The translations under genes and the position numbers were made by a program. Shown piece by piece: positions 9,046 to 63,333 of a DNA stretch of 64,000 nucleotides. The DNA is from Minisyncoccota bacterium. GTDB taxonomy: Bacteria; Patescibacteriota; Minisyncoccia; Phycocordibacterales; CAJBRS01. Each line of letters starts with the position of its first letter. The stretch's first letter is position 1. The stretch covers positions 117,666 through 181,665 of the forward strand of contig JADGRH010000006.1 in NCBI GenBank assembly GCA_017881075.1, written 5' to 3'. Below the pieces are notes generated by a model. The model did not search any database. It saw only the letters and a program-made list of their open reading frames with translations, and was not told the DNA's origin.

Positions 9046-10227
9046 TTGTGGAAATGGCAGAATGAGGGATTTATCATTAATCTTAGGCTTATTTTACCAT
9101 ACAGTAGGATTCCAAGCCGGTTTTCGGCCTCTCTAAAGCCCAAAAGTCTTATCACAAGCCTCTTCTATGGAAGGCTCATATTATCATTAGTATTACTAAG
9201 CTTGCCAGGCAATACCCAGGCAAGTGTTTTTTCATTTGTTGGCCATCTATTTGCTGGCACCAACGCCAACGCTAGCGCCTCGGATATAGTCCAAGAATCC
9301 TCCAATTCCCAGAAAATGCCTCTTCTCCAGCTGGCTCTAAACACTAATCCTACCCCATACAATAAAGAACCCGACTTAAATGTGGTGGGAGAGGCACTTC
9401 TCGCTGTAAGCGGTCCTGAAGGGGCGGCTTCCGAATCTTCCTCAGTCGTTCGTCCTTCTAATGATCAGATCAGCCTTTATACTGTCCGAGAGGGCGATAC
9501 TCTTTCAAGTATTGCCAACCTTTTTAATGTTACGGTTAATACCATTCGGTGGGCCAACGATCTGAATTCTGGCTCTACTATCAAAAAAGGACAAGTTTTA
9601 ATTATCTTACCGATCTCTGGAGTTAAATATACGGTTAAGAAGGGGGATACAGTTCAGAGTATAGCTAAGTCATACGGTGGTGATGTTGGTGAAATTAATA
9701 GTTTCAACAATCTCGAGGTAGGCCAAAAACTGTCAGTTGGAGATGAGGTTGTTATTCCCGACGGAGAACTTAGCAGTGGCGTCCAAACTTCTTCCGAAAA
9801 TTCATCAAATGGATCTAAAACTACGGTCACCAAGAGTGGTAAAACTACTGCCGGCCCAACTAGTGGCACCTATATTGATTCAAGCGGCTATTTCCGCCGA
9901 CCACTTGACGGAGGCGTTCGCACTCAAGGTATACATGGACACAATGGTGTTGACTGGGGATCTCCGGTAGGCACCCCGATCCACGCCGCCGCTTCTGGCC
10001 AAGTGATTATCAGTAAAAATAGCGGTTGGAATGGTGGCTATGGCGACTATGTGGTAATCAGCCACCCTAATGGTACGCAGACTCTTTATGCTCACATGAG
10101 CAAGACGGCAGTTTCTGGTGGAGCGAACGTGGAGAAAGGAGAAGTTATCGGCTACATTGGCCTGACCGGCGAAACCACCGGCCCCCATGTCCACTTTGAA
10201 GTTCGAGGAGCCAAAAATCCGTTCTAA
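9046..10227 (+). CDS. secreted LysM (x2) + M23 family peptidase (TTG start, uncertain)
   Basis: Two LysM motifs (YTVREGDTLSSIA, YTVKKGDTVQSIA). M23 motifs HNGVDWG...GYGDYVVISH...GPHVHFEV. A signal-like hydrophobic stretch lies ~40 aa in. Confidence 0.8.
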   Translation: MWKWQNEGFIINLRLILPYSRIPSRFSASLKPKSLITSLFYGRLILSLVLLSLPGNTQASVFSFVGHLFAGTNANASASDIVQESSNSQKMPLLQLALNTNPTPYNKEPDLNVVGEALLAVSGPEGAASESSSVVRPSNDQISLYTVREGDTLSSIANLFNVTVNTIRWANDLNSGSTIKKGQVLIILPISGVKYTVKKGDTVQSIAKSYGGDVGEINSFNNLEVGQKLSVGDEVVIPDGELSSGVQTSSENSSNGSKTTVTKSGKTTAGPTSGTYIDSSGYFRRPLDGGVRTQGIHGHNGVDWGSPVGTPIHAAASGQVIISKNSGWNGGYGDYVVISHPNGTQTLYAHMSKTAVSGGANVEKGEVIGYIGLTGETTGPHVHFEVRGAKNPF

Positions 10228-11854: not shown

Positions 11855-11875
11855 ATAAGAGGTTAAACCTCTTAT
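11855..11875 (-). terminator. 21-nt perfect palindrome ATAAGAGGTTAAACCTCTTAT immediately 3' of dksA (hairpin, weak U-tract)
   Basis: Palindrome read from the sequence. Confidence 0.35.
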
Positions 11876-20646: not shown

Positions 20647-20661
20647 CAGATCAGTTTTTTT

Positions 20662-20699
20662 AAAGACAAAAAGACCTATTTTCGGGTCTTTTTGTCTTT
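20662..20699 (+). terminator. rho-independent terminator (AAAGACAAAAAGACC / GGTCTTTTTGTCTTT), bidirectional
   Basis: 15-bp perfect stem flanked by A- and T-tracts. Confidence 0.8.
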
Positions 20700-20873
20700 A
20701 ATGAAACGGCCAACTTTATAGGTTTTTTGATAATAACTGTGGATAACTCAGTGGATATGTGTATAAAGGACATGTCTTTTAGTAATATATGTTTCACATG
20801 AAACTGTTATTTATGAAACATCATTTTAACTATATTTTAAGGCTTTTTCATATCGATATGCTTTAATTATCGG

Positions 20874-27420: not shown

Positions 27421-27467
27421 TCTTCTTCGCCACAAATATAACAGATAAGGCCTTTTTTGCAAAAAAA

Positions 27468-27496
27468 GAGTCGCGCCGGAGGCGCGACTCTTTTTT
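27468..27496. terminator. bidirectional terminator GAGTCGCGCC-gga-GGCGCGACTC flanked by A7 and T6
   Basis: 10-bp perfect stem. Confidence 0.8.
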
Positions 27497-27793: not shown

Positions 27794-27917
27794 CTTGCTT
27801 ATATTTATAGCTTATAAATACCTCGACCTCTTTAATGTTGATATAAATGATTATATATTAGGCCCTTTTTAGTGCAATAGGGTGATTTTCCACATACCAA
27901 TGGGCACCATTGGTATT

Positions 27918-30233: not shown

Positions 30234-30962
30234 ATGAGGCTACACCGGTTTTTAATTGAAGAGGTTATAGGGGGAGCGGAGGAGATCATGATTACCGACT
30301 CCGAGCTTATTCACCAGTGGAAGAACGTTTTTCGGTTTACGACCGGGACACGGCTAATCCTTTTTGATGGTTCCGGTTTTGAATATCTGGGTTTGATTGA
30401 TCGACTCTCTAATCTTGGAGCCAAGGTCAGAATCTTAAGCAAGGAAGACAAAAATAACGTTCCATATCCAGAAATTTGTCTTTTTGCCGCTCTGATTAAG
30501 AAAGATAATTTTGAGTGGATTATTGAAAAGGCGACTGAACTTGGGGTTTCACAAATTGTGCCGGTTCTCTGTGACCGAAGTGAGAAGAAGGGACTGAACA
30601 TGGTCCGAGCAAAGAAGATCATGAAAGAGGCGAGCGAGCAGTCGGGAAGGGTAAAGTTGCCCAGGTTGAATGAGCCTCAAGCGCTTGAGGATTTACTGAA
30701 AAGTATAAAGATTGGAGATGAAGAAAACTTAAAAATTTTCTCAATAGATCCGAAAGGAAAGATAAAATTTGGAAACTTAGCTTCCAAATGGAAAGAGGTT
30801 AAAGAAATTGGGGTTTTGGTGGGGCCGGAAGGGGGGTGGAGTGAAAGGGAATTGGAGCTTTTCCGTCTGAAAAAGATCCCAATCTATAGTCTCGGCCCTC
30901 AAATCCTCCGGGCCGAGACGGCAGCTATCGCAGTTGCATCTCTACTTATTTTAGGAGAATGA
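30234..30962 (+). CDS. rsmE: 16S rRNA (uracil1498-N3)-methyltransferase RsmE family
   Basis: MRLHRF... VLVGPEGGWSEREL. Confidence 0.65.
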   Translation: MRLHRFLIEEVIGGAEEIMITDSELIHQWKNVFRFTTGTRLILFDGSGFEYLGLIDRLSNLGAKVRILSKEDKNNVPYPEICLFAALIKKDNFEWIIEKATELGVSQIVPVLCDRSEKKGLNMVRAKKIMKEASEQSGRVKLPRLNEPQALEDLLKSIKIGDEENLKIFSIDPKGKIKFGNLASKWKEVKEIGVLVGPEGGWSERELELFRLKKIPIYSLGPQILRAETAAIAVASLLILGE

Positions 30963-30990
30963 ATTATCGAAGTCTGACTTCAATAATTCA
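30960..30990. repeat. palindrome family member: TGAATTATCGAAGTC-T-GACTTCAATAATTCA
   Basis: 31-nt near-perfect palindrome between the convergent rsmE and tig genes. Confidence 0.8.
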
Positions 30991-47731: not shown

Positions 47732-47796
47732 TGTCAAAGACTGTCTTTGACATGCCTGTAATGGTTTGTTAAGGTGAAAATAGAAAGATTCCACCT

Positions 47797-48057
47797 ATGA
47801 AATTTGTAAGGAAGTCGATTTGGGTATTAGTTGCGGCTCTTATACTCTCATTTAATATTGTTTGTTGGAGGCTGATACCCTATCTAATAAATCATGATGC
47901 CACGAAAGAAATTCTCGCGGTCGTCTTTGGGATCATAATTCTTGTTATCCTCCCTTCCGCATTTTTCTTTTTACTTCTTCTGCGCTATTCGCCCTGGAGA
48001 TGGCCAAGAATCCAAAAGAGTATAGAGCCTCTATTTGGAGAAGAACGGCGCGTCTAA
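47797..48057 (+). CDS. small membrane protein (86 aa)
   Basis: Two predicted TM helices. Confidence 0.4.
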   Translation: MKFVRKSIWVLVAALILSFNIVCWRLIPYLINHDATKEILAVVFGIIILVILPSAFFFLLLLRYSPWRWPRIQKSIEPLFGEERRV

Positions 48058-48098
48058 AAACGACGCCGATTTTATTTTTCTAATTCCTTTTTATTGAA

Positions 48099-48121
48099 TG
48101 ACCGAAGTCTGACTTCGGTCA
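48099..48121. repeat. palindrome family member: TGACCGAAGTC-T-GACTTCGGTCA (23-nt perfect)
   Basis: Lies between convergent genes and abuts the trmB-like stop codon. Confidence 0.85.
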
Positions 48122-48910
48122 TCACTTGTTGTCACTCATCTGCCAGAGAGTTTCATAAACAGCTTTCATGCTTTCGGCGATGCTTCGGCTTTGGATAATG
48201 ATTCCATGCTCTCTGCCTTTTGATAAAGACATAATGCCAATACGATCAGCATAAATATCAATTTCATTTTTGAAGTTGTATAAGTCCGGTGGTAAGAAAC
48301 GGACGGTGCGAAGCTCTTTCTGGTTTCGTTCTGTTGAAAATTCCTTCATTGCTCTTTCAGTTTTGGGAATAATTCCGCGAGTAGGAATAGCTAAAGCTGT
48401 TCGCCGCTCCCAATAATTATTTAAGAACTCTTCGCCGAAGCTATACTCTATTGATTCAACAGAGGAAAAAGACAAGATCTCTCGAGGCTTATTTTTTAAG
48501 GTATCGTTTAAAACCTCTCTCACTCCATCCACTCCTTCATAAAAAAGAACAACAGGCTTATCTTCGGCGGAAGAAAAATTCGCTTCAAATTCATTTTTTA
48601 ACGACTCTGCCCTTTTCAATAAGTCGGTGACGGCTTCCTGTTTTGATTCTAGCCTTGCCACAATATCCGAATATTCCATCGGCACGAAATACTTAGTCCG
48701 ATTATTCTTTTTAGCTCGTATCTTTACAAAGCCTTTAGCCGAGAGCCGTTTCAAGGCCTCATAGGCGGTGACTCTATTAAGGCCAGCTACTTTGGCGATA
48801 CCACTCGCCGAACCAGACCCAATATCTAAAGTGGCCAAATAAGCCCCAATCTCGGCCTTATTTAAGCCCAGTTCGGTTAAAAACTGTCTCATTTCCGGTC
48901 TAATATTCAT
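48122..48910 (-). CDS. TrmB-like HTH transcriptional regulator
   Basis: N-terminal winged-helix region ...IAKVAGLNRVTAYEALKRLSAKGFV. Confidence 0.5.
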   Translation of the reverse strand: MNIRPEMRQFLTELGLNKAEIGAYLATLDIGSGSASGIAKVAGLNRVTAYEALKRLSAKGFVKIRAKKNNRTKYFVPMEYSDIVARLESKQEAVTDLLKRAESLKNEFEANFSSAEDKPVVLFYEGVDGVREVLNDTLKNKPREILSFSSVESIEYSFGEEFLNNYWERRTALAIPTRGIIPKTERAMKEFSTERNQKELRTVRFLPPDLYNFKNEIDIYADRIGIMSLSKGREHGIIIQSRSIAESMKAVYETLWQMSDNK

Positions 48911-49081
48911 GTTTGTAGTATACGATTTACAACATAAAATGCAAGTATATATCTGATTTTATCTTTAATAATAAGCCGATTCTAGCTTTTTGGTCTTTTA
49001 ACTACTCATATTTGTAAATCATAATTTACTATAAGTGCTTATCGATGTACTCTTTACTCAGGAATTTGGCTTTAAATAGGT

Positions 49082-49588
49082 GTGCCATTGAACACCAGAA
49101 GAAGAAACTTGAAAATGAAATGGAAATCATATTCAGTAGTTCAGATTAAGACTCACAAAGTTACAACAATTGATGACCTCATCAGGGGGATAAGGATTTC
49201 CAAAATCCGAATGACTCCTAGCGGGCATCAACTTATAGAGAATGAACGACATTCCTCTTGGGAAGGGGAAGCCGAAGTTAGATTCTATAAGTGGAAAAAA
49301 GATTTGTATGTTGGTCGCATTCTGCTCTGTCAGTTAAGAGCACTTCTTTTACTTCAACCACAAGGAGGAAAAGGAGCCTTACTCACTGGAAAAGGCGAAC
49401 TGAATACTTTCAATATCCAAATGAGAAGTGGAGTGAGTTGGGCTATAGATGTGTGGTATGAAGACGGATGGAATATAACCGCATCTGATCCAAACATTGG
49501 TTCGAGTGACGATCGTTTCTCCACGATTGCTGTGGCGGAAGTGATGATGAGGTTAGAGTCTATCCCCGGCCCTCGCTACGAAAATTAA
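49082..49588 (+). CDS. hypothetical protein (168 aa)
   Basis: ORF only. Confidence 0.35.
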   Translation: MPLNTRRRNLKMKWKSYSVVQIKTHKVTTIDDLIRGIRISKIRMTPSGHQLIENERHSSWEGEAEVRFYKWKKDLYVGRILLCQLRALLLLQPQGGKGALLTGKGELNTFNIQMRSGVSWAIDVWYEDGWNITASDPNIGSSDDRFSTIAVAEVMMRLESIPGPRYEN

Positions 49589-49632
49589 AACGCTGTAACT
49601 AAAGACCTCGCATGAGAAATTGTGCGGGGATT

Positions 49633-50046
49633 TTATTTTTCTAATTCTTTTTTGATTTTTGCTGATACCGCTTTACTCTCACCTTCTTTGTAGATTAGAT
49701 GGCGGCCATGATAGCCGCCGTCATTACTGAATCGGGGGATAACGTGAATATGAGTGTGGAAGACATCTTGCCCGCCCGCTTTCTCGTTATTCATGACTAT
49801 GTTGATACCGTCGGCATCCAATCCATGTTTGATTGCCGTAGCCATTTTCTTGACAGTTAGCATTAAGCGGCAGAATTCTTCATCCGGGGTGGTGTAAATA
49901 TTCTCAAAATGATCTTTAGTTACTACTAAGGTGTGACCGAGGTTGTTCGGGTGAATATCAAGGAAGGCAAAAGTATATTCATCTTCATAAATTTTTTCTG
50001 AAGGAATCTCTCCTTTCACTATTTTGCAAAAGATACAATCTGACAT
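49633..50046 (-). CDS. HIT family (histidine triad) hydrolase
   Basis: CIFCKI... HTHIHVIPR. Confidence 0.9.
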   Translation of the reverse strand: MSDCIFCKIVKGEIPSEKIYEDEYTFAFLDIHPNNLGHTLVVTKDHFENIYTTPDEEFCRLMLTVKKMATAIKHGLDADGINIVMNNEKAGGQDVFHTHIHVIPRFSNDGGYHGRHLIYKEGESKAVSAKIKKELEK

Positions 50047-50081
50047 AATAGTATTTTAACATATCCATCATATCCTCCAGC

Positions 50082-50110
50082 AAAATAACGAAGTCAGACT
50101 TCGTTATTTT
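50082..50110. repeat. palindrome family member: AAAATAACGAAGTC-A-GACTTCGTTATTTT (29-nt perfect)
   Basis: Lies between the divergent HIT and recJ genes. Confidence 0.85.
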
Positions 50111-50126
50111 AGAACAAATTTAACTA

Positions 50127-51860
50127 TTGTTTATCCTGAATGTGTTAAGATGTTTCAAAATGAAGACCTACAAAGTTAGAGAAGAACTCAGAGATATTGA
50201 TCGAGAAGCTCTGAAATCCTACCCGGAATTTTTGCAACACCTCCTGTTTCATCGTGGCCTCCGGAGTGAGGAGGCCGCGGAAGAGTTTCTCTTTCCTCAT
50301 TATGAGAATGGCACTCACGATCCGTATCTGATGAAAGATATGGAGAAAGCGGTGAAGCGAATCATGAAGGCTATTGATAATGACGAAAAAACCATTATTT
50401 TCAGCGATTTTGATGCCGATGGTATTCCCGGCGCTGTCGTTCTGCACGATTTTTTTAAGAAGATCGGTTACAACAACTTTGAGAATTACATTCCGGATCG
50501 ACACAACGAAGGCTACGGTCTCAACGTGGATGCGATCACTAAGTTTAAAGAACTCGGAGCAACACTTCTCATCACTATTGATTGCGGCATTTCAAATTTC
50601 AAAGAAGTAGAGAAAGCTAATGAATTCGGTATTGACGTTATTATCACTGATCACCACTTACCTCATAAAAAATTACCAGCCGCTTATGCCATCATTAATT
50701 CCAAACAAGAAGATTGCGACTACCCGTTCAAAATGCTCTGCGGTGCCGGCGTGGTTTTTAAATTAGTACAGGCAATTCTGAAGAAAAAAAGATTCAGCAT
50801 TAAAGAGGGAATGGAAAAATGGTATTTAGACATGGTAGGTTTTGCCACTCTTTCTGACATGGTGCCACTTCACGGTGAGAATCGCATCTTTGCTCACTAT
50901 GGCTTGATGGTCTTGCGCAAATCTCCGCGCCTTGGTCTTTTGGAGCTTTTGCGTCGGGCGGATATCAATCCTCGCAATCTTTCCGAAGATGATATTTCCT
51001 TCAGCCTAACACCGAAGATTAATGCTGCTTCCCGCATGGGTTCGCCCCACTCCGCTTTTGAATTATTTAAGACGAATGACCAGGTACGAGCCAAAGAATT
51101 ATCGGAAGACCTATTCAAATTAAATGATGAAAGAAAAGGAGTGGTAGCGGCTATGTTGAAAGAAATGCGGAAGGTAATCGAAAAAAGAGAGATTGGTGAA
51201 GTAATCGTATTGGGAAATCCGAAATGGCGGCCAGGGGTTTTGGGCCTGGCCGCCAACAACCTTGCAGACGAATATCAGAAGCCGGTATTTCTCTGGGGAA
51301 GGGAAGGGAGCGGCCTGCTTAAAGGGTCAGGCCGCTCAAACGGATTGATTGACCTTTCTGTTTTGCTTAAGGAGGTCAATCCAGAAATCATTTCCGATTA
51401 TGGAGGTCACGCCTTCGCCGGCGGCTTCACTGTTGTTATCGATAAAGTCCATTTACTGGAAGAAGAATTAAATCGGGCATACGAGAAGACTAAAATGGTA
51501 ACAGTCTTGTCGGAAAATTTTGTAGACAAGAAACTTTCCATGAACGAGGTGAACTGGGAACTCTATAAATTGATTGCCAAGCTCGCTCCTTACGGAGAAG
51601 GGAATCCAAAACCAATGTTCTTGTTTGAAGGAGCGAAAATAAAAACTATGAAGCAATTCGGCAAGACCGCTAATCACCTTGAATTAATGTTTGAAAATGA
51701 AAAAGGCAAAAAGATCAAAGCTATCGGCTTTTTCATGAACGAAGGCAGTTTCAGTAAACCAATGAAGGCCGGTCAAAAAATCGATCTAGTGGCCACCTTT
51801 GAAAAATCCAATTTTCGCAATTTTCCCGAGCTAAGGCTACGCATCGTTGACATTTTATAG
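50127..51860 (+). CDS. recJ: single-stranded-DNA-specific exonuclease RecJ (DHH/DHHA1)
   Basis: IIFSDFDADGIPG and ITDHH. Confidence 0.85.
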   Translation: MFILNVLRCFKMKTYKVREELRDIDREALKSYPEFLQHLLFHRGLRSEEAAEEFLFPHYENGTHDPYLMKDMEKAVKRIMKAIDNDEKTIIFSDFDADGIPGAVVLHDFFKKIGYNNFENYIPDRHNEGYGLNVDAITKFKELGATLLITIDCGISNFKEVEKANEFGIDVIITDHHLPHKKLPAAYAIINSKQEDCDYPFKMLCGAGVVFKLVQAILKKKRFSIKEGMEKWYLDMVGFATLSDMVPLHGENRIFAHYGLMVLRKSPRLGLLELLRRADINPRNLSEDDISFSLTPKINAASRMGSPHSAFELFKTNDQVRAKELSEDLFKLNDERKGVVAAMLKEMRKVIEKREIGEVIVLGNPKWRPGVLGLAANNLADEYQKPVFLWGREGSGLLKGSGRSNGLIDLSVLLKEVNPEIISDYGGHAFAGGFTVVIDKVHLLEEELNRAYEKTKMVTVLSENFVDKKLSMNEVNWELYKLIAKLAPYGEGNPKPMFLFEGAKIKTMKQFGKTANHLELMFENEKGKKIKAIGFFMNEGSFSKPMKAGQKIDLVATFEKSNFRNFPELRLRIVDIL

Positions 51861-51896: not shown

Positions 51897-53504
51897 ATGA
51901 TAACTACATTAAAAACTCTCACACGAGAGGCATTTGCGGATATTAAGGAGGAAATGAAAGTTCGTCGGACCTCAGAGGTCTTTCTTCTTTTTCCTCTTGG
52001 CAGTCAGTTTGACCATCTGATTAAACTGGCCCTTGCGAAATTGGGAGTCTATTGTTTGGTGGCAGATCCGAAGACTCTCCGAGCAACCGACGTCAAAAAA
52101 CTCGCTCCTAAGGGAATCATTCTCTCCGGAGGCCCTGCTTCAGTTTATGCCGAGAACGTAGAATTTGACCGTGAAATTTTTGGTCTGGGTATTCCCGTAC
52201 TCGGTATCTGCTTTGGTTTCCAGATGTGGGCTCACCATGTTGGTGTTGAAGTTGTGTCATCCGACAAAAAAGAGTTTAGCGTTCACCGCCTAAATATTTT
52301 GTTGCCCGATTCACCACTATTTAAGGATTTCAAAAATCTGAATGTTCAACAAAATCATGGAGACAAGATTCTACCCAATGAAAAGATATTTCAAACATTA
52401 GCCGCCACAGACAACTCTCCCGTGGCGGCCGGTAGAAAAGGTCATTTGTGGGGTGTTCAGTTTCATCCGGAAGTCTCGGCTACGCCGGACGGCTTGAAAA
52501 TATTAGAGAACTTCTGTTTTTCCATCTGCGGAGCGCAGGATCGTTTTCCGGCGGTGGACGCGGCAAAGGAAAAAGTCTCTCACCTACAGGAAACTCTGGG
52601 AAGCGATAAGAAAGTGCTTCTGGCACTCTCCGGTGGATCCGATTCCTCGGTAGTAGCATATCTCTTAAAACAGGTGTTTGGTCAAACAATTGGACGCGTG
52701 CGGGCGATCTACATCAAAGGGATAGATCGTCCTGACGATGAAAAAGATGTCCGGAGATTCTTTGGTGGAGAACCTTGGCTGGAACTTCAGGTGGTTGACG
52801 CCACGACCGCATTTCTGGAAGTGCTTAGGGGTAAACCGAGCATGAAGGAAAAGAGAATTGCCATGCGAGGTGTTTATAAAAGGATATTGGAGGAAGAGGG
52901 GCAAAAATTCGGAGCGGATTTCATCGCTCAAGGAACTCTCTACACCGATATCTCCGAAAGCGGAGGAGGTTATGATGTTGGCTCGCGCAAAGCGGAGATC
53001 AAACTCCATCATAATACTAACCTCGGCTTCTCTATTCCGGAGCTAACGCCTCTAGACGAATATGTCAAAGACAGCGCTCGGGATATTGGCGCCGCAATCG
53101 GCGTGCCCAAGGAGCTTCTACTCAGGCATCCTTTTCCTGGACCCGGTTTGGTGGTTCGAATTGAAGGAGAAGTCACTGCGGAGAATCTCAAAGTCGCACG
53201 GGAGGTGGACTCTATCTATATTGAGGAACTTCGTAAGAGTGGTATTTATCAAACGGTCTGGCAGGCCGGAGCAGTGGTGACGCAATCTGTAACTACTTGC
53301 ACTCAAGGCGACGAGGCTGGTAATGGTCTAGTCATTGCTCTGTGGGCAGTTTGGAGTGTTAATGGTTTTACCGCTGAAGCAGCTGAACTGCCGTGGGAGT
53401 TTCTTTCCGGTCTCGCCAAGAGGATTACTAATGAAGTTCGCTCTGTGGGGTCGGTGGTCTATCGACTCACTGACAAGCCTCCGAGCACTATTGAGTGGGG
53501 TTAA
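51897..53504 (+). CDS. guaA: GMP synthase (glutamine-hydrolysing)
   Basis: GATase ICFGFQ...H.E. ATP-PPase SGGSDSSV. Confidence 0.9.
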   Translation: MITTLKTLTREAFADIKEEMKVRRTSEVFLLFPLGSQFDHLIKLALAKLGVYCLVADPKTLRATDVKKLAPKGIILSGGPASVYAENVEFDREIFGLGIPVLGICFGFQMWAHHVGVEVVSSDKKEFSVHRLNILLPDSPLFKDFKNLNVQQNHGDKILPNEKIFQTLAATDNSPVAAGRKGHLWGVQFHPEVSATPDGLKILENFCFSICGAQDRFPAVDAAKEKVSHLQETLGSDKKVLLALSGGSDSSVVAYLLKQVFGQTIGRVRAIYIKGIDRPDDEKDVRRFFGGEPWLELQVVDATTAFLEVLRGKPSMKEKRIAMRGVYKRILEEEGQKFGADFIAQGTLYTDISESGGGYDVGSRKAEIKLHHNTNLGFSIPELTPLDEYVKDSARDIGAAIGVPKELLLRHPFPGPGLVVRIEGEVTAENLKVAREVDSIYIEELRKSGIYQTVWQAGAVVTQSVTTCTQGDEAGNGLVIALWAVWSVNGFTAEAAELPWEFLSGLAKRITNEVRSVGSVVYRLTDKPPSTIEWG

Positions 53505-53511
53505 TTCAGCA

Positions 53512-53546
53512 AGCCGTGCGGGCAACTTTCTCGCACGGCTTTTTTA
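53512..53546 (+). terminator. rho-independent terminator AGCCGTGCG...CGCACGGCT-T6
   Basis: 9-bp stem followed by a T-tract. Confidence 0.8.
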
Positions 53547-53600
53547 ATTTGCTTATTTAAAACATAGCTGGTAGAGTCATATTTTAGAAGCCTCCTTAAT

Positions 53601-54089
53601 ATGAATATCACCAATTCTGAATCTAATCGGATTTCTTCGACGGCGTTGTCTCAGAGCCCCAGTTCCTTGTATGAATACATTAAGTGTCATTTCCTCTCCC
53701 GCAAATATCTTGGCGAAGAGATGAAGAATATGCCTTTAGAATTTTGTAACGGCATTACCGTTGTCAGATGTCGCTACTGCGCAGTGAGGGAGAGATGGGG
53801 AGAAAGATTTTTCATTATCCAAATCTTTCTTTTGGGCACTGAAGATTCTAAGAACCTTCACAATATTGAAGAATACAGTGTGGGGGAAGAGGGAATTGTC
53901 GGCATCCACGAAATTAATAATGCTCGACTAGTTACTTTTCCATCAGCCGATCAGTTTAGCTGGCCAGCACTTGTATCCAATAAAGTAAAAGAAGTGGCTG
54001 CGGTAGCAGTTCTAGTTTTCCTCAAGGGGGTCTTAGACCACCCGACGATGAAGTGCAAGAAGATTTCTCTGACGAGCTTATCGAGGTAA
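53601..54089 (+). CDS. questionable hypothetical ORF (162 aa)
   Basis: ORF only. Upstream sequence is CCTCCTT rather than an SD. Confidence 0.25.
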   Translation: MNITNSESNRISSTALSQSPSSLYEYIKCHFLSRKYLGEEMKNMPLEFCNGITVVRCRYCAVRERWGERFFIIQIFLLGTEDSKNLHNIEEYSVGEEGIVGIHEINNARLVTFPSADQFSWPALVSNKVKEVAAVAVLVFLKGVLDHPTMKCKKISLTSLSR

Positions 54090-54935: not shown

Positions 54936-56339
54936 ATGAAGTTTTACGTTTTTGTCTGGAGTTTTTTTGGCGTTGTTTTTCTTGCCTCGGTTTTCCATTG
55001 GCCGCTTTGGCCGTTTCACAATCACGATCCCAATTTCTATTCTCACCTTAATGAAGTCGTAACCATTCGCGGAATTATAGTGGATGAGCCGGATCAAAGA
55101 GAAAACAATACCAATCTAATAATTCTACCGACAAAAATTAATGACAAGTCTTTTTCTACTAAAGAAAAATTAATTGCTCGAGCTCCATCATATTCCACTT
55201 TTCAATACGGAGATGAGGTTGAAGTAAGGGGGAAGTTGGAATTGCCGGAAATGATCGATTCGGATAATGGTCGTACTTTCAATTATCCCGAATATCTGGC
55301 AAAAGATAATATCTATTATTTGATAAATAGGGCGGAGGTCAAGGTAATTTCAAGCGGCCATGGAAATATCGTTAAAAGAAATCTTTTCAAAATCAAGCAT
55401 GCCTTTCTCTCTAATCTCAATGAATTATTACCTGAACCGCATTCCGGTTTCATGGGTGGCTTGATTATTGCCGGAAAGAAATCTTTGCCGGCCGATATTT
55501 TGGCCGAATTTCAGAGAACTGGAACACTGCAGATAGTTGTTCTCTCCGGCTACAACATTACTATTGTGGCCGAAGCAATGATGAAAATGTTTTCATTTTT
55601 ACCAAGCGCCGGCGGATTGATAGCCGGCGCTGGGAGCATCATTCTTTTTTCAATTATGGCGGGTGGCGCGTCTACGATAGTCCGCGCCGCCGTCATGGCC
55701 TTGATCTCCATTCTCGGTAAGGCTACTCACCGTGTTTATGATGCCAAACGAGCCCTCTTTATGGCCGGTTTTTTAATGGTACTTCAGAATCCAAAGATAT
55801 TGACCTATGACCCTTCATTTCAGCTTAGTTTTATGGCTACTTTGGGGTTAATGGTTCTCTCGCCATTCTTCGAGCAACGTCTATTATGGATTCCAGAAAA
55901 ATTCCAACTTAGGGCAATGGCTTCAGCAACTCTTGCCAGCCAAGTTTTCGTCACTCCGATTATTTTCTACCAGATCGGCCAGGTTTCTCTTGTTTCCGTG
56001 CCAACCAACATGCTAATGCTCATTCTTGTTCCAACAATAATGTTGATCGGTTTTATCACGGGGCTTGTGGGGTTTGTCAGCCACTTGGTCGCAATGCCTT
56101 TTGCCTTCATTTCGTATTTTTTACTTTCATACGAGCTTTTTGTGTTAAAATTTTTTGCCAATATTCCTTTTGCTTTGATCTCAATTCCATTTCCGTTCTG
56201 GGTGTTAGCCGGCGTTTACGGTTTTTATGTTTTTATCTTTTTTAAGAGGAGAAAAAATACCAGCCAAATAACAAAAGAAAGCGCCGCCGTAGGCGGCGCT
56301 TTCTCAAGAATTAAAGACATTAAGATCCTAGAGGACTAA
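54936..56339 (+). CDS. comEC: ComEC/Rec2 family DNA-uptake channel (DUF4131 + competence domain; no MBL domain)
   Basis: Multi-pass membrane protein. LQIVVLSGYNITIV. Confidence 0.8.
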   Translation: MKFYVFVWSFFGVVFLASVFHWPLWPFHNHDPNFYSHLNEVVTIRGIIVDEPDQRENNTNLIILPTKINDKSFSTKEKLIARAPSYSTFQYGDEVEVRGKLELPEMIDSDNGRTFNYPEYLAKDNIYYLINRAEVKVISSGHGNIVKRNLFKIKHAFLSNLNELLPEPHSGFMGGLIIAGKKSLPADILAEFQRTGTLQIVVLSGYNITIVAEAMMKMFSFLPSAGGLIAGAGSIILFSIMAGGASTIVRAAVMALISILGKATHRVYDAKRALFMAGFLMVLQNPKILTYDPSFQLSFMATLGLMVLSPFFEQRLLWIPEKFQLRAMASATLASQVFVTPIIFYQIGQVSLVSVPTNMLMLILVPTIMLIGFITGLVGFVSHLVAMPFAFISYFLLSYELFVLKFFANIPFALISIPFPFWVLAGVYGFYVFIFFKRRKNTSQITKESAAVGGAFSRIKDIKILED

Positions 56340-60122: not shown

Positions 60123-60182
60123 TTTTCGCTTATTGATAAATATCGTCCAAAAAAGATCAAAAGCCAAGTAATTTAGTAAATT

Positions 60183-60201
60183 ATCGAAGTCAGACTTCGT
60201 T
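60183..60201. repeat. palindrome family member: ATCGAAGTC-A-GACTTCGTT
   Basis: Lies between rpsG and the inserted gene. Confidence 0.8.
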
Positions 60202-60230
60202 AAATCTAGAATGTGTGGTATTGTGTAGCC

Positions 60231-60974
60231 ATGAAATCCACCCAAAAAGGCTTTATTATTCCACTTCTCGTCGCTATCATTGCTGTTCTTGCTATTGGTG
60301 GCGGGATATATGTCTATAGCCAGCATCAGAAGATTGCAGAGCAACAGGCGGAATTGAATACTAACGCAACGCTTAACACCGATAATAGCGGCCCAGTACC
60401 GACGTTGAGGAATTATGATAATTCAACAACTACGATTACTACAAGTGCTTCTACTAACACTTCGGTAAATGGATCTGCGAATGTTAATTCAAATCCACCT
60501 CCTCCCGTGGCTGACACAGATGAAAGTATCTTTAATCGTGTTCGGTTTACTTTACCATCATTCAATAATCCAAATATAACAAATAGTTTTAATTTCAGTG
60601 ATGAGGTGAATTATGATGGGCGTACTATAAAAATTGCTCGTCCAGAGAATGGTAGCGCATATACACTTAACAGGTTTATCATTGATATGAAATCGGCAAA
60701 AGCAGTTACTGAGATTAGATTAAATGGCGGCGCTACGGCAGGTATGGATTATCTTGTGCTGGTGTCAGATCTCGGCTCTGTTCCTAAACAAATTGCGTAT
60801 AAAATGATTTCTGCTGGTTATTCTGTGAGGGTAAATTCAATGAATTTTGCTGACGATGTTGTCACAGTGAATGTGACAATAGTTGCTCCCAACGGAAATG
60901 GCGTAGCTGGTCCTTTCGAGACCAAAAATTGGAAATTTTCTACCAAAAATAATACTATCATTCAAATACAATAG
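60231..60974 (+). CDS. hypothetical N-terminally anchored protein inserted between rpsG and fusA
   Basis: TM helix FIIPLLVAIIAVLAIGGG. N/S/T-rich region. Start could alternatively be 60213. Confidence 0.5.
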   Translation: MKSTQKGFIIPLLVAIIAVLAIGGGIYVYSQHQKIAEQQAELNTNATLNTDNSGPVPTLRNYDNSTTTITTSASTNTSVNGSANVNSNPPPPVADTDESIFNRVRFTLPSFNNPNITNSFNFSDEVNYDGRTIKIARPENGSAYTLNRFIIDMKSAKAVTEIRLNGGATAGMDYLVLVSDLGSVPKQIAYKMISAGYSVRVNSMNFADDVVTVNVTIVAPNGNGVAGPFETKNWKFSTKNNTIIQIQ

Positions 60975-61046
60975 TTAGTTTGCCAACCTTCCAGATAAAT
61001 GCTATTTTATTCTCACGGCTCGAGGAGTCGTTTTATTTAACTTTTT

Positions 61047-63188: not shown

Positions 63189-63198
63189 AAAAGATAAA

Positions 63199-63226
63199 AG
63201 GGCGACCGCTACGCGGTCGCCCTTTT
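63199..63226 (+). terminator. rho-independent terminator GGGCGACCG-ctacg-CGGTCGCCC-TTTT
   Basis: Read from the sequence. Confidence 0.85.
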
Positions 63227-63333
63227 ATCTTTCCTTTAGCGAAAATTCATCTCGGATTAGTAGAATTACGGCAAATGATTGTCGATGTCATTTTGCCTTT
63301 GAGTTTACGTCTTTAATTGTGTATATTAATCAC

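Follow-up and report, generated by a model that had tools for sequence, protein, structure and literature searches.

The four palindromes that recur in the window, by which we mean the whole 64-kb stretch of DNA that was analysed, are probably REP elements and belong to a RAYT-associated family of CPR bacteria (Patescibacteria). The window copies belong to this family by both sequence and structure, and the palindrome is physically associated with a transposase gene in other CPR contigs. A REP-like element was one of several candidates put forward in a first-pass annotation of this DNA, and it gains support because, in related CPR contigs, this palindrome is found on either side of a gene for a RAYT-like Y1 transposase. 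The element is thus of a known kind, found in a lineage for which we are aware of no report: a search of the literature returned no paper linking REP or RAYT with CPR, and searches on uptake sequences, terminators and LexA motifs in CPR returned nothing relevant.

In a pattern scan of the window, the exact core CGAAGTCNGACTTCG (CGAAGTC-W-GACTTCG) was located at 48103-48117, 50089-50103 and 60185-60199, and a core that differs by one mismatch in the last base, CGAAGTCTGACTTCA, at 30968-30982. No match to CGAAGTCNGACTTCG was obtained in 100 dinucleotide shuffles of the window, so that the recurrence of a palindrome at four intergenic sites, three with the exact core and one with a one-mismatch core, is real. 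The copies are listed below with their scores in a covariance model, R1, which was built without the window.

30960-30990, REP copy 1, TGAATTATCGAAGTCTGACTTCAATAATTCA, exactly between the stop codons of rsmE (plus strand) and tig (minus strand), R1 score 32.0 bits, E 1e-9
48098-48122, REP copy 2, ATGACCGAAGTCTGACTTCGGTCAT, adjoining the stop codon of a gene for a TrmB-like HTH protein (minus strand), R1 score 33.1 bits, E 3.6e-10
50082-50110, REP copy 3, AAAATAACGAAGTCAGACTTCGTTATTTT, in the spacer between the divergent HinT and recJ genes, R1 score 41.6 bits, E 1.3e-13
60181-60203, REP copy 4, TTATCGAAGTCAGACTTCGTTAA, with an imperfect lower stem, 61 nt past rpsG, R1 score 33.1 bits, E 3.8e-10

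The palindrome of copy 1 is arranged as 15+1+15 nt with a single mismatch in the core, C:A as written and U.G when the minus strand is read, while copies 2 (12+1+12) and 3 (14+1+14) are perfect. Copy 4 is an imperfect palindrome at 60183-60201, in which a T:T apposition beside the core is followed by three pairs and then by A:A. The 15-nt core had been described as invariant, which is true of only three of the four copies because the fourth site (30968-30982) carries one mismatch. Flanks that differ in sequence yet stay complementary were likewise recovered in three copies, the one at 60183-60201 being only partially paired, and the palindrome previously delimited as 48099-48121 is indeed perfect but extends by one more base on each side. 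Folding predicted a hairpin with a 3-nt loop for all four copies, with a z-score of -5.8 for site 1 on the minus strand. The flanks of the window copies pair to ±14 or ±15, further than the family average, which may point to an additional local function. Outside the hairpin the four sites are not similar to each other, which rules out a larger MITE around it.

The gene contexts given in the first-pass annotation were also borne out. Two copies are located between convergent genes (rsmE/tig and ORF86/TrmB-like), one between divergent genes (HinT/recJ) and one after rpsG, the last of these just upstream of a promoter-like site and the ATG (60231) of a window-specific membrane ORF that precedes fusA. 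When positions were checked relative to gene ends, three of the four copies were found directly past stop codons or gene ends. All four are intergenic singlets, with no doublets among them, and no additional copy was present in the 9.7 kb to the left of the window.

To describe the structure of the family, we used a set of 103 distinct copies from which the window copies were left out. The pair at ±8 was CG in 50, UA in 20, GC in 17 and AU in 3 of these copies, the pairs at ±11 and ±12 likewise covaried, and no pairing was seen outside ±12. The covariation score was reached by none of 500 shuffles and collapsed in slid controls. Selection on structure and not on sequence alone, which had been proposed from the flanks of the window copies, is thus upheld by covariation at ±8, ±11 and ±12 in 103 independent copies. 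The family unit is a hairpin of about 25 nt, N-TA-N-CGAAGTC-W-GACTTCG-N'-TA-N, in which the apex and the TA are conserved throughout the family while positions ±8, ±11 and ±12 vary but remain paired. Its foot is NTAN: of 107 copies, 105 have the T and 106 the A, and G is found at the first position in 34 and at the fourth position in 18; the foot tetranucleotides in the window are TTAT, TGAC, ATAA and TTAT. Copy 2 carries a compensated change at ±10, where it has G:C versus T:A in the family. When applied to the window, R1 retrieved exactly the four sites (32-41.6 bits, E <= 1e-9), the next score being 9.5 bits. Rfam searched across the window gave no match at the sites at the gathering threshold, and a permissive Rfam search of 48000-50200, which includes two of the sites, gave nothing credible.

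Several other hairpins are present in the window. Perfect AT-rich palindromes with centres of 1-3 nt are found at 11855-11875, 47732-47752 and 27894-27916, each starting 0-4 nt from a stop codon; the genes concerned encode a DksA-like protein, PGK and RNase Y, and the palindromes are unrelated in sequence and are not recognised by the REP model. The dksA-proximal palindrome at 11855-11875 exists as described in the first-pass annotation, but it does not belong to the family. Very long and perfectly paired bidirectional terminators flanked by A-runs and T-runs are located at 27462-27496, 63190-63232, 20660-20701 and 56276-56304, one of them inside the overlapping ends of the convergent genes for ComEC and superoxide dismutase. 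A GACTC...GAGTC hairpin with a T-run just upstream of fusA (window 61016-61040) is conserved in relatives (L002, 18010-18040; L003, 17760-17785) and could be either an attenuator or a terminator for the unit before it.

Oriented by their centre base, the window copies have A/T at ±9 and mostly T/A at ±10, and we therefore scanned a metagenome collection with TANCGAAGTCWGACTTCGNTA (TA-N-core-N-TA). The scan yielded 104 stretches with 121 core sites, compared to a chance estimate of about 5-10; the stretches come from groundwater and sediment contigs with GC contents of 36 to 63%. Several contigs contained two or three copies, or doublets spaced 25-26 nt from centre to centre, most of which were inverted (inverted in L204, L206, L241, L249 and L274; direct in L228). 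The copy number of the family seems to be low. The 15-mer alone was too unspecific for genome and viral collections: the genome collection gave at least 117 stretches, mostly singletons and from all phyla, for an estimated 1100 or so chance matches, and the viral contigs gave 55 single matches, which is at chance level. In four stretches from the genome scan (L072, L092, L115 and L171) canonical terminators of unrelated phyla have this 15-mer at their apex, and palindromic queries thus preferentially retrieve hairpins by chance. A copy inside leuS in L148 was first taken as such a chance match, but is probably a family member since its contig also carries a RAYT homologue (P0277).

In several metagenomic contigs (L223, L200) two palindromes are separated by about 750 nt with an ORF of 234-248 aa between them. 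The encoded protein matches the Pfam family Y1_Tnp (PF01797; E 1e-9), and among the NCBIfam models it fits best to NF047646, REP-associated tyrosine transposase (E 8.5e-8, versus 9e-3 for the IS200 model), although at 31-33 bits it scores below the curated cut-off of 80 bits. The Y1/HUH transposase gene adjoins the palindrome in at least 9 of the 104 stretches and in a separately fetched Kaiserbacteria genome (L287, GCA_026396675.1; Parcubacteria group), where it is located between palindromes at 9965 and 10709, and tblastn placed homologues beside REPs in L240, L213, L189, L192, L205 and L273. Wherever a contig covers both sides of the gene, a palindrome is present at each (L223, L200, L192, L189, L240, L213, L287), and the flanking copies are inverted, as indicated by opposite centre bases in the left and the right copy. 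In the metagenome stretches, far more copies occur without the gene than with it. The Kaiserbacteria locus also contains a row of T4SS_pilin genes.

A total of 674 homologues of the transposase were retrieved at E <= 1e-10, one of which is labelled RayT by JGI, and the HUH motif NHFHLL and the tyrosines Y127, Y140 and Y144 were invariant in 22 homologues. The fold search is no more than indicative, as it started from a low-confidence AlphaFold model of the protein (pLDDT 58.8); the top 30 Foldseek matches in the PDB were all Y1 transposases (IS200, IS608, ISDra2 and the RAYT structure 4ER8), with weak E-values of 6e-3 or higher. A single-sequence search of the PDB gave no match, and a profile search matched only ISDra2 (E 0.13). 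The gene was located beside a gene for an S1-domain protein and pth at the following positions.

L223, 4426-5130, RAYT-like gene
L200, 2178-2924, RAYT-like gene
L287, 10001-10708, RAYT-like gene

The same neighbourhood is found in L189 and L213, making five contigs with homologues of 61-100% identity. In three other contigs (L261, L222 and L242) the palindrome is located between the S1 gene and pth with no transposase gene, which suggests that the gene was lost and the repeat left behind. The locus thus looks like one of vertical inheritance with occasional loss. Searches that included tblastn identified no RAYT gene in the 64-kb window or in the 9.7 kb to its left. The DNA just left of the window (L290, 1-2600) encodes type IV secretion-like proteins (a TraG-like ATPase, a TraC-like protein and PrgI).

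Many of the metagenomic copies are inside genes, and the family is therefore not strictly extragenic. At least 32 metagenomic sites are located in frame within genes, as singles or as doublets. The hosts are genuine housekeeping genes of CPR-like contigs and encode HisRS (9 contigs, in a linker between domains), an EEP nuclease (9 contigs) and AlaRS (4 contigs), and further in-frame copies were seen in genes for LeuRS, MnmA, Dus, TGT and an FAD oxidase. In-frame copies are found at these positions.

L230, 5040, in-frame copy
L206, 4581, in-frame copy
L260, 9760, in-frame copy
L277, 399, in-frame copy
L148, 6331, in-frame copy
L274, 3686 and 3711, in-frame copies
L206, 8172 and 8198, in-frame copies
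L238, 5451, in-frame copy
L190, 4832, in-frame copy

The in-frame copies are translated as xKSDFx, YRS(L/Q)TSV or EVRLR, and base-pair covariation in the coding copies alters two amino acids together (P..G versus S..D). The LeuRS segment that contains a copy and its counterpart in a homologue lacking the copy are equally long, which implies that an in-gene copy is not always a simple insertion; for the HisRS copy, the comparison proteins are paralogues. The metagenomic CPR copies, as opposed to the window copies, are in this respect similar to the Rickettsia palindromic elements, which Ogata et al. (2000) reportedly found in a reduced genome, likewise in frame within housekeeping genes. The Rickettsia elements are 100-150 bp in size and are not known to have a dedicated transposase, whereas the CPR elements are 21-50 nt.

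The window belongs to a CPR MAG (Parcubacteria/Paceibacteria): its RecJ and trigger factor proteins have 100% matches on a MAG contig of 204,808 bp, and the next relatives of the two proteins are 59-79% identical and annotated as Paceibacterota or Parcubacteria. A comparison with three syntenic relatives of the window showed that all four copies are located at junctions with differing gene content, and the copies thus flag sites of lineage-specific gene gain. Two relatives had no copy of the palindrome in their syntenic DNA, of which about 40 kb was covered in each, and the HinT/recJ spacer is 113 nt in the window versus 30 nt in all three relatives. The genes that are extra in the window encode a TrmB-like regulator and an ORF of no assigned function (48122-49588), GMP synthase and another ORF of no assigned function (51897-54089), and, between rpsG and fusA (60231-60974), a membrane-anchored ORF that belongs to no known family.

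We also observed an extended -10-like element, TGnTAnnAT, a few bases before apparent gene starts with no Shine-Dalgarno sequence, which suggests that the mRNAs of the genes concerned are leaderless or nearly so. Upstream of recJ, relatives have the element conserved as well.

Window 50143-50151, -10-like element of recJ
Window 50053-50061, minus strand, -10-like element of HinT
Window 60216-60224, -10-like element of the ORF at 60231
L002, L003 and L005, near 9975-9990, -10-like element
L287, near 9985, -10-like element

The positions of the copies could also be accounted for if the hairpins were primarily bidirectional terminators or stabilisers of mRNA 3' ends, their shared apex being due to a host RNA-binding factor rather than to mobile DNA. 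The location of three of the four copies at gene ends fits with such a role, as do the A-run and T-run flanks of site 3, which resemble those of the canonical bidirectional terminators at 27462-27496 and 63190-63232, the sole mismatch of site 1, which on the strand of the tig mRNA amounts to a U.G wobble, and a canonical terminator at the equivalent place after rpsG in one relative (L002). However, a U-rich tail is present only at site 3 (on both strands) and site 1 (on the plus strand) and missing at sites 2 and 4, site 3 is between divergent genes, and site 2 already adjoins a canonical terminator about 30 nt upstream (48044-48075). The same sequence furthermore flanks the transposase gene and occurs inside coding regions elsewhere, and relatives do without the palindrome at the same junctions. 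We therefore regard termination as an unlikely primary function, while a secondary terminator role for the window palindromes is possible; terminator and mRNA-stabilising side roles have been reported for REPs. The nature of the flanked gene bears on another explanation, by which the palindromes derive from an ordinary insertion sequence of the IS200/IS605 type (PATE-like), either as its end hairpins or as remnants, with no involvement of REP or RAYT. This is improbable given the far better match to the RAYT model than to the IS200 model, the single chromosomal neighbourhood (S1/pth) that is kept across homologues of 61-100% identity, the presence of the same palindrome at both flanks, and the excess of copies without the gene, even though the protein matches Y1_Tnp, has its best structural matches in the TnpA proteins of IS608 and ISDra2 and scores below the cut-off of the RAYT model.

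An operator of a dimeric transcription factor, such as the adjacent TrmB-like regulator, is in our judgement very improbable. Sites 3 and 4 are located 39-62 nt upstream of promoter-like sites, and the syntenic relatives are without both the TrmB-like gene and the palindromes, in agreement with an operator. Yet the compensatory changes at ±8, ±11 and ±12 are indicative of pairing and not of base-specific contacts, two of the sites are between convergent genes, three of the four cores are identical, which is unlike the degenerate sites of a regulon, and the family is tied to a transposase rather than to TrmB. The suggestion in the first-pass annotation that the palindrome might be a DNA uptake sequence, which would be read by the ComEC and type IV pilus machinery encoded in the window, fared poorly. 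It could draw on the 21-nt sequence that is common to many CPR lineages with GC contents of 36 to 63%. Known uptake sequences occur about once per kb; here, four copies were found in the roughly 74 kb that were read (the window plus 9.7 kb to the left), or about one per 16 kb in the window, none of them in a window gene. The half-site CGAAGTC is not enriched outside the palindromes in the window, contigs of 163 and 360 kb carry just two strict matches each, and neither stem covariation nor linkage to a transposase would be expected, so that an uptake function appears extremely improbable. The inverted pairs of the Neisseria DUS resemble the CPR palindromes in that a conserved word gives rise to hairpins downstream of genes in naturally competent hosts, but they have a density of about one per kb, act as a single 10-12-mer and are not associated with a transposase. 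An integron attC site was rejected as its pattern is the opposite, with a conserved base and a variable centre, whereas the apex is invariant and the outer stem variable in the palindromes studied here.

The interpretation of the palindromes as REP elements is in line with published systems. RAYT genes are characterised by flanking REPs, HUH and Y motifs, a single copy and doublets in inverted orientation (PMC3337134), and perfectly palindromic REPs with a 3-nt loop, in which the loop bases matter, have been described (PMC8266576); the CPR gene and palindrome match these hallmarks in the flanking repeats, the motifs, the inverted doublets and the 3-nt loop, and probably also in the single locus of the gene. 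The group 3 TnpA-REP system of Stenotrophomonas maltophilia (PMC8266576) likewise combines a short, perfectly palindromic hairpin, whose loop is 3 nt and whose apex is conserved, with dispersed copies without a gene and a Y1/HUH gene flanked by the same hairpins, and the bases of the loop and upper stem matter in that system. The CPR family differs from it in that the foot is NTAN, with an invariant TA, instead of GTAG, and that the element is almost fully symmetric and thus presents a nearly identical hairpin on both strands. The CPR transposase is also longer (234-248 aa) and falls under the curated RAYT threshold, the hosts are CPR bacteria, and the copy number is apparently low. With the REPINs of Pseudomonas fluorescens (PMC3116915, PMC3337134) the family shares inverted REP doublets, which in the metagenomic relatives are 25-26 nt apart from centre to centre, and what looks like a single-locus transposase with its own specific repeat type, but the window contains singlets only, the CPR spacers are much shorter and many copies elsewhere are within genes. 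The REP/BIME elements of E. coli, which are associated with TnpA-REP (structure 4ER8), are similarly extragenic hairpins near gene ends, but they are imperfect, require a bulge and have a strict GTAG (PMC8266576). The subterminal hairpins of IS200/IS605 elements are comparable in the fold of the transposase and in the recognition of hairpins in single-stranded DNA, and differ in that the left and right ends are unlike and that the whole element is multi-copy, while the CPR gene seems to keep to one locus between identical hairpins.

By analogy, the CPR transposase would recognise the hairpin folded in single-stranded DNA through its apex and the TA at its foot, and would cut and rejoin the DNA beside the hairpin, thereby seeding new copies. 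We infer that the transposase mobilises the copies and that the source genome of the window has, or once had, a RAYT-like gene. It may be that some of the copies, for example site 3, which is flanked by A/T runs, have since been co-opted as terminators or as stabilisers of mRNA 3' ends. More speculatively, and with considerable doubt on our part, the CPR could harbour a REP-RAYT system with an unusually rigid, near-symmetric 21-nt repeat that is common to lineages with GC contents of 36 to 63% and has settled not only in what little intergenic DNA there is but also, in frame, in loop and linker regions of essential genes. The RAYT-like enzyme would then be a domesticated processor of single-stranded DNA with a host function in reduced, naturally competent cells, and no leftover parasite.

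REP and RAYT have so far been studied mostly in large proteobacterial genomes. Their presence in the ultra-small and tightly packed genomes of CPR bacteria means that streamlined symbionts too retain such repeats. The family explains the recurrent palindromes that are visible in assemblies of CPR MAGs, and the covariance model together with the transposase family provides a ready means to annotate them. In genes for aminoacyl-tRNA synthetases and tRNA-modification enzymes, the in-frame copies make it possible to test whether mobile palindromes shape protein loops, and the copies at gene junctions mark where individual lineages have gained genes.
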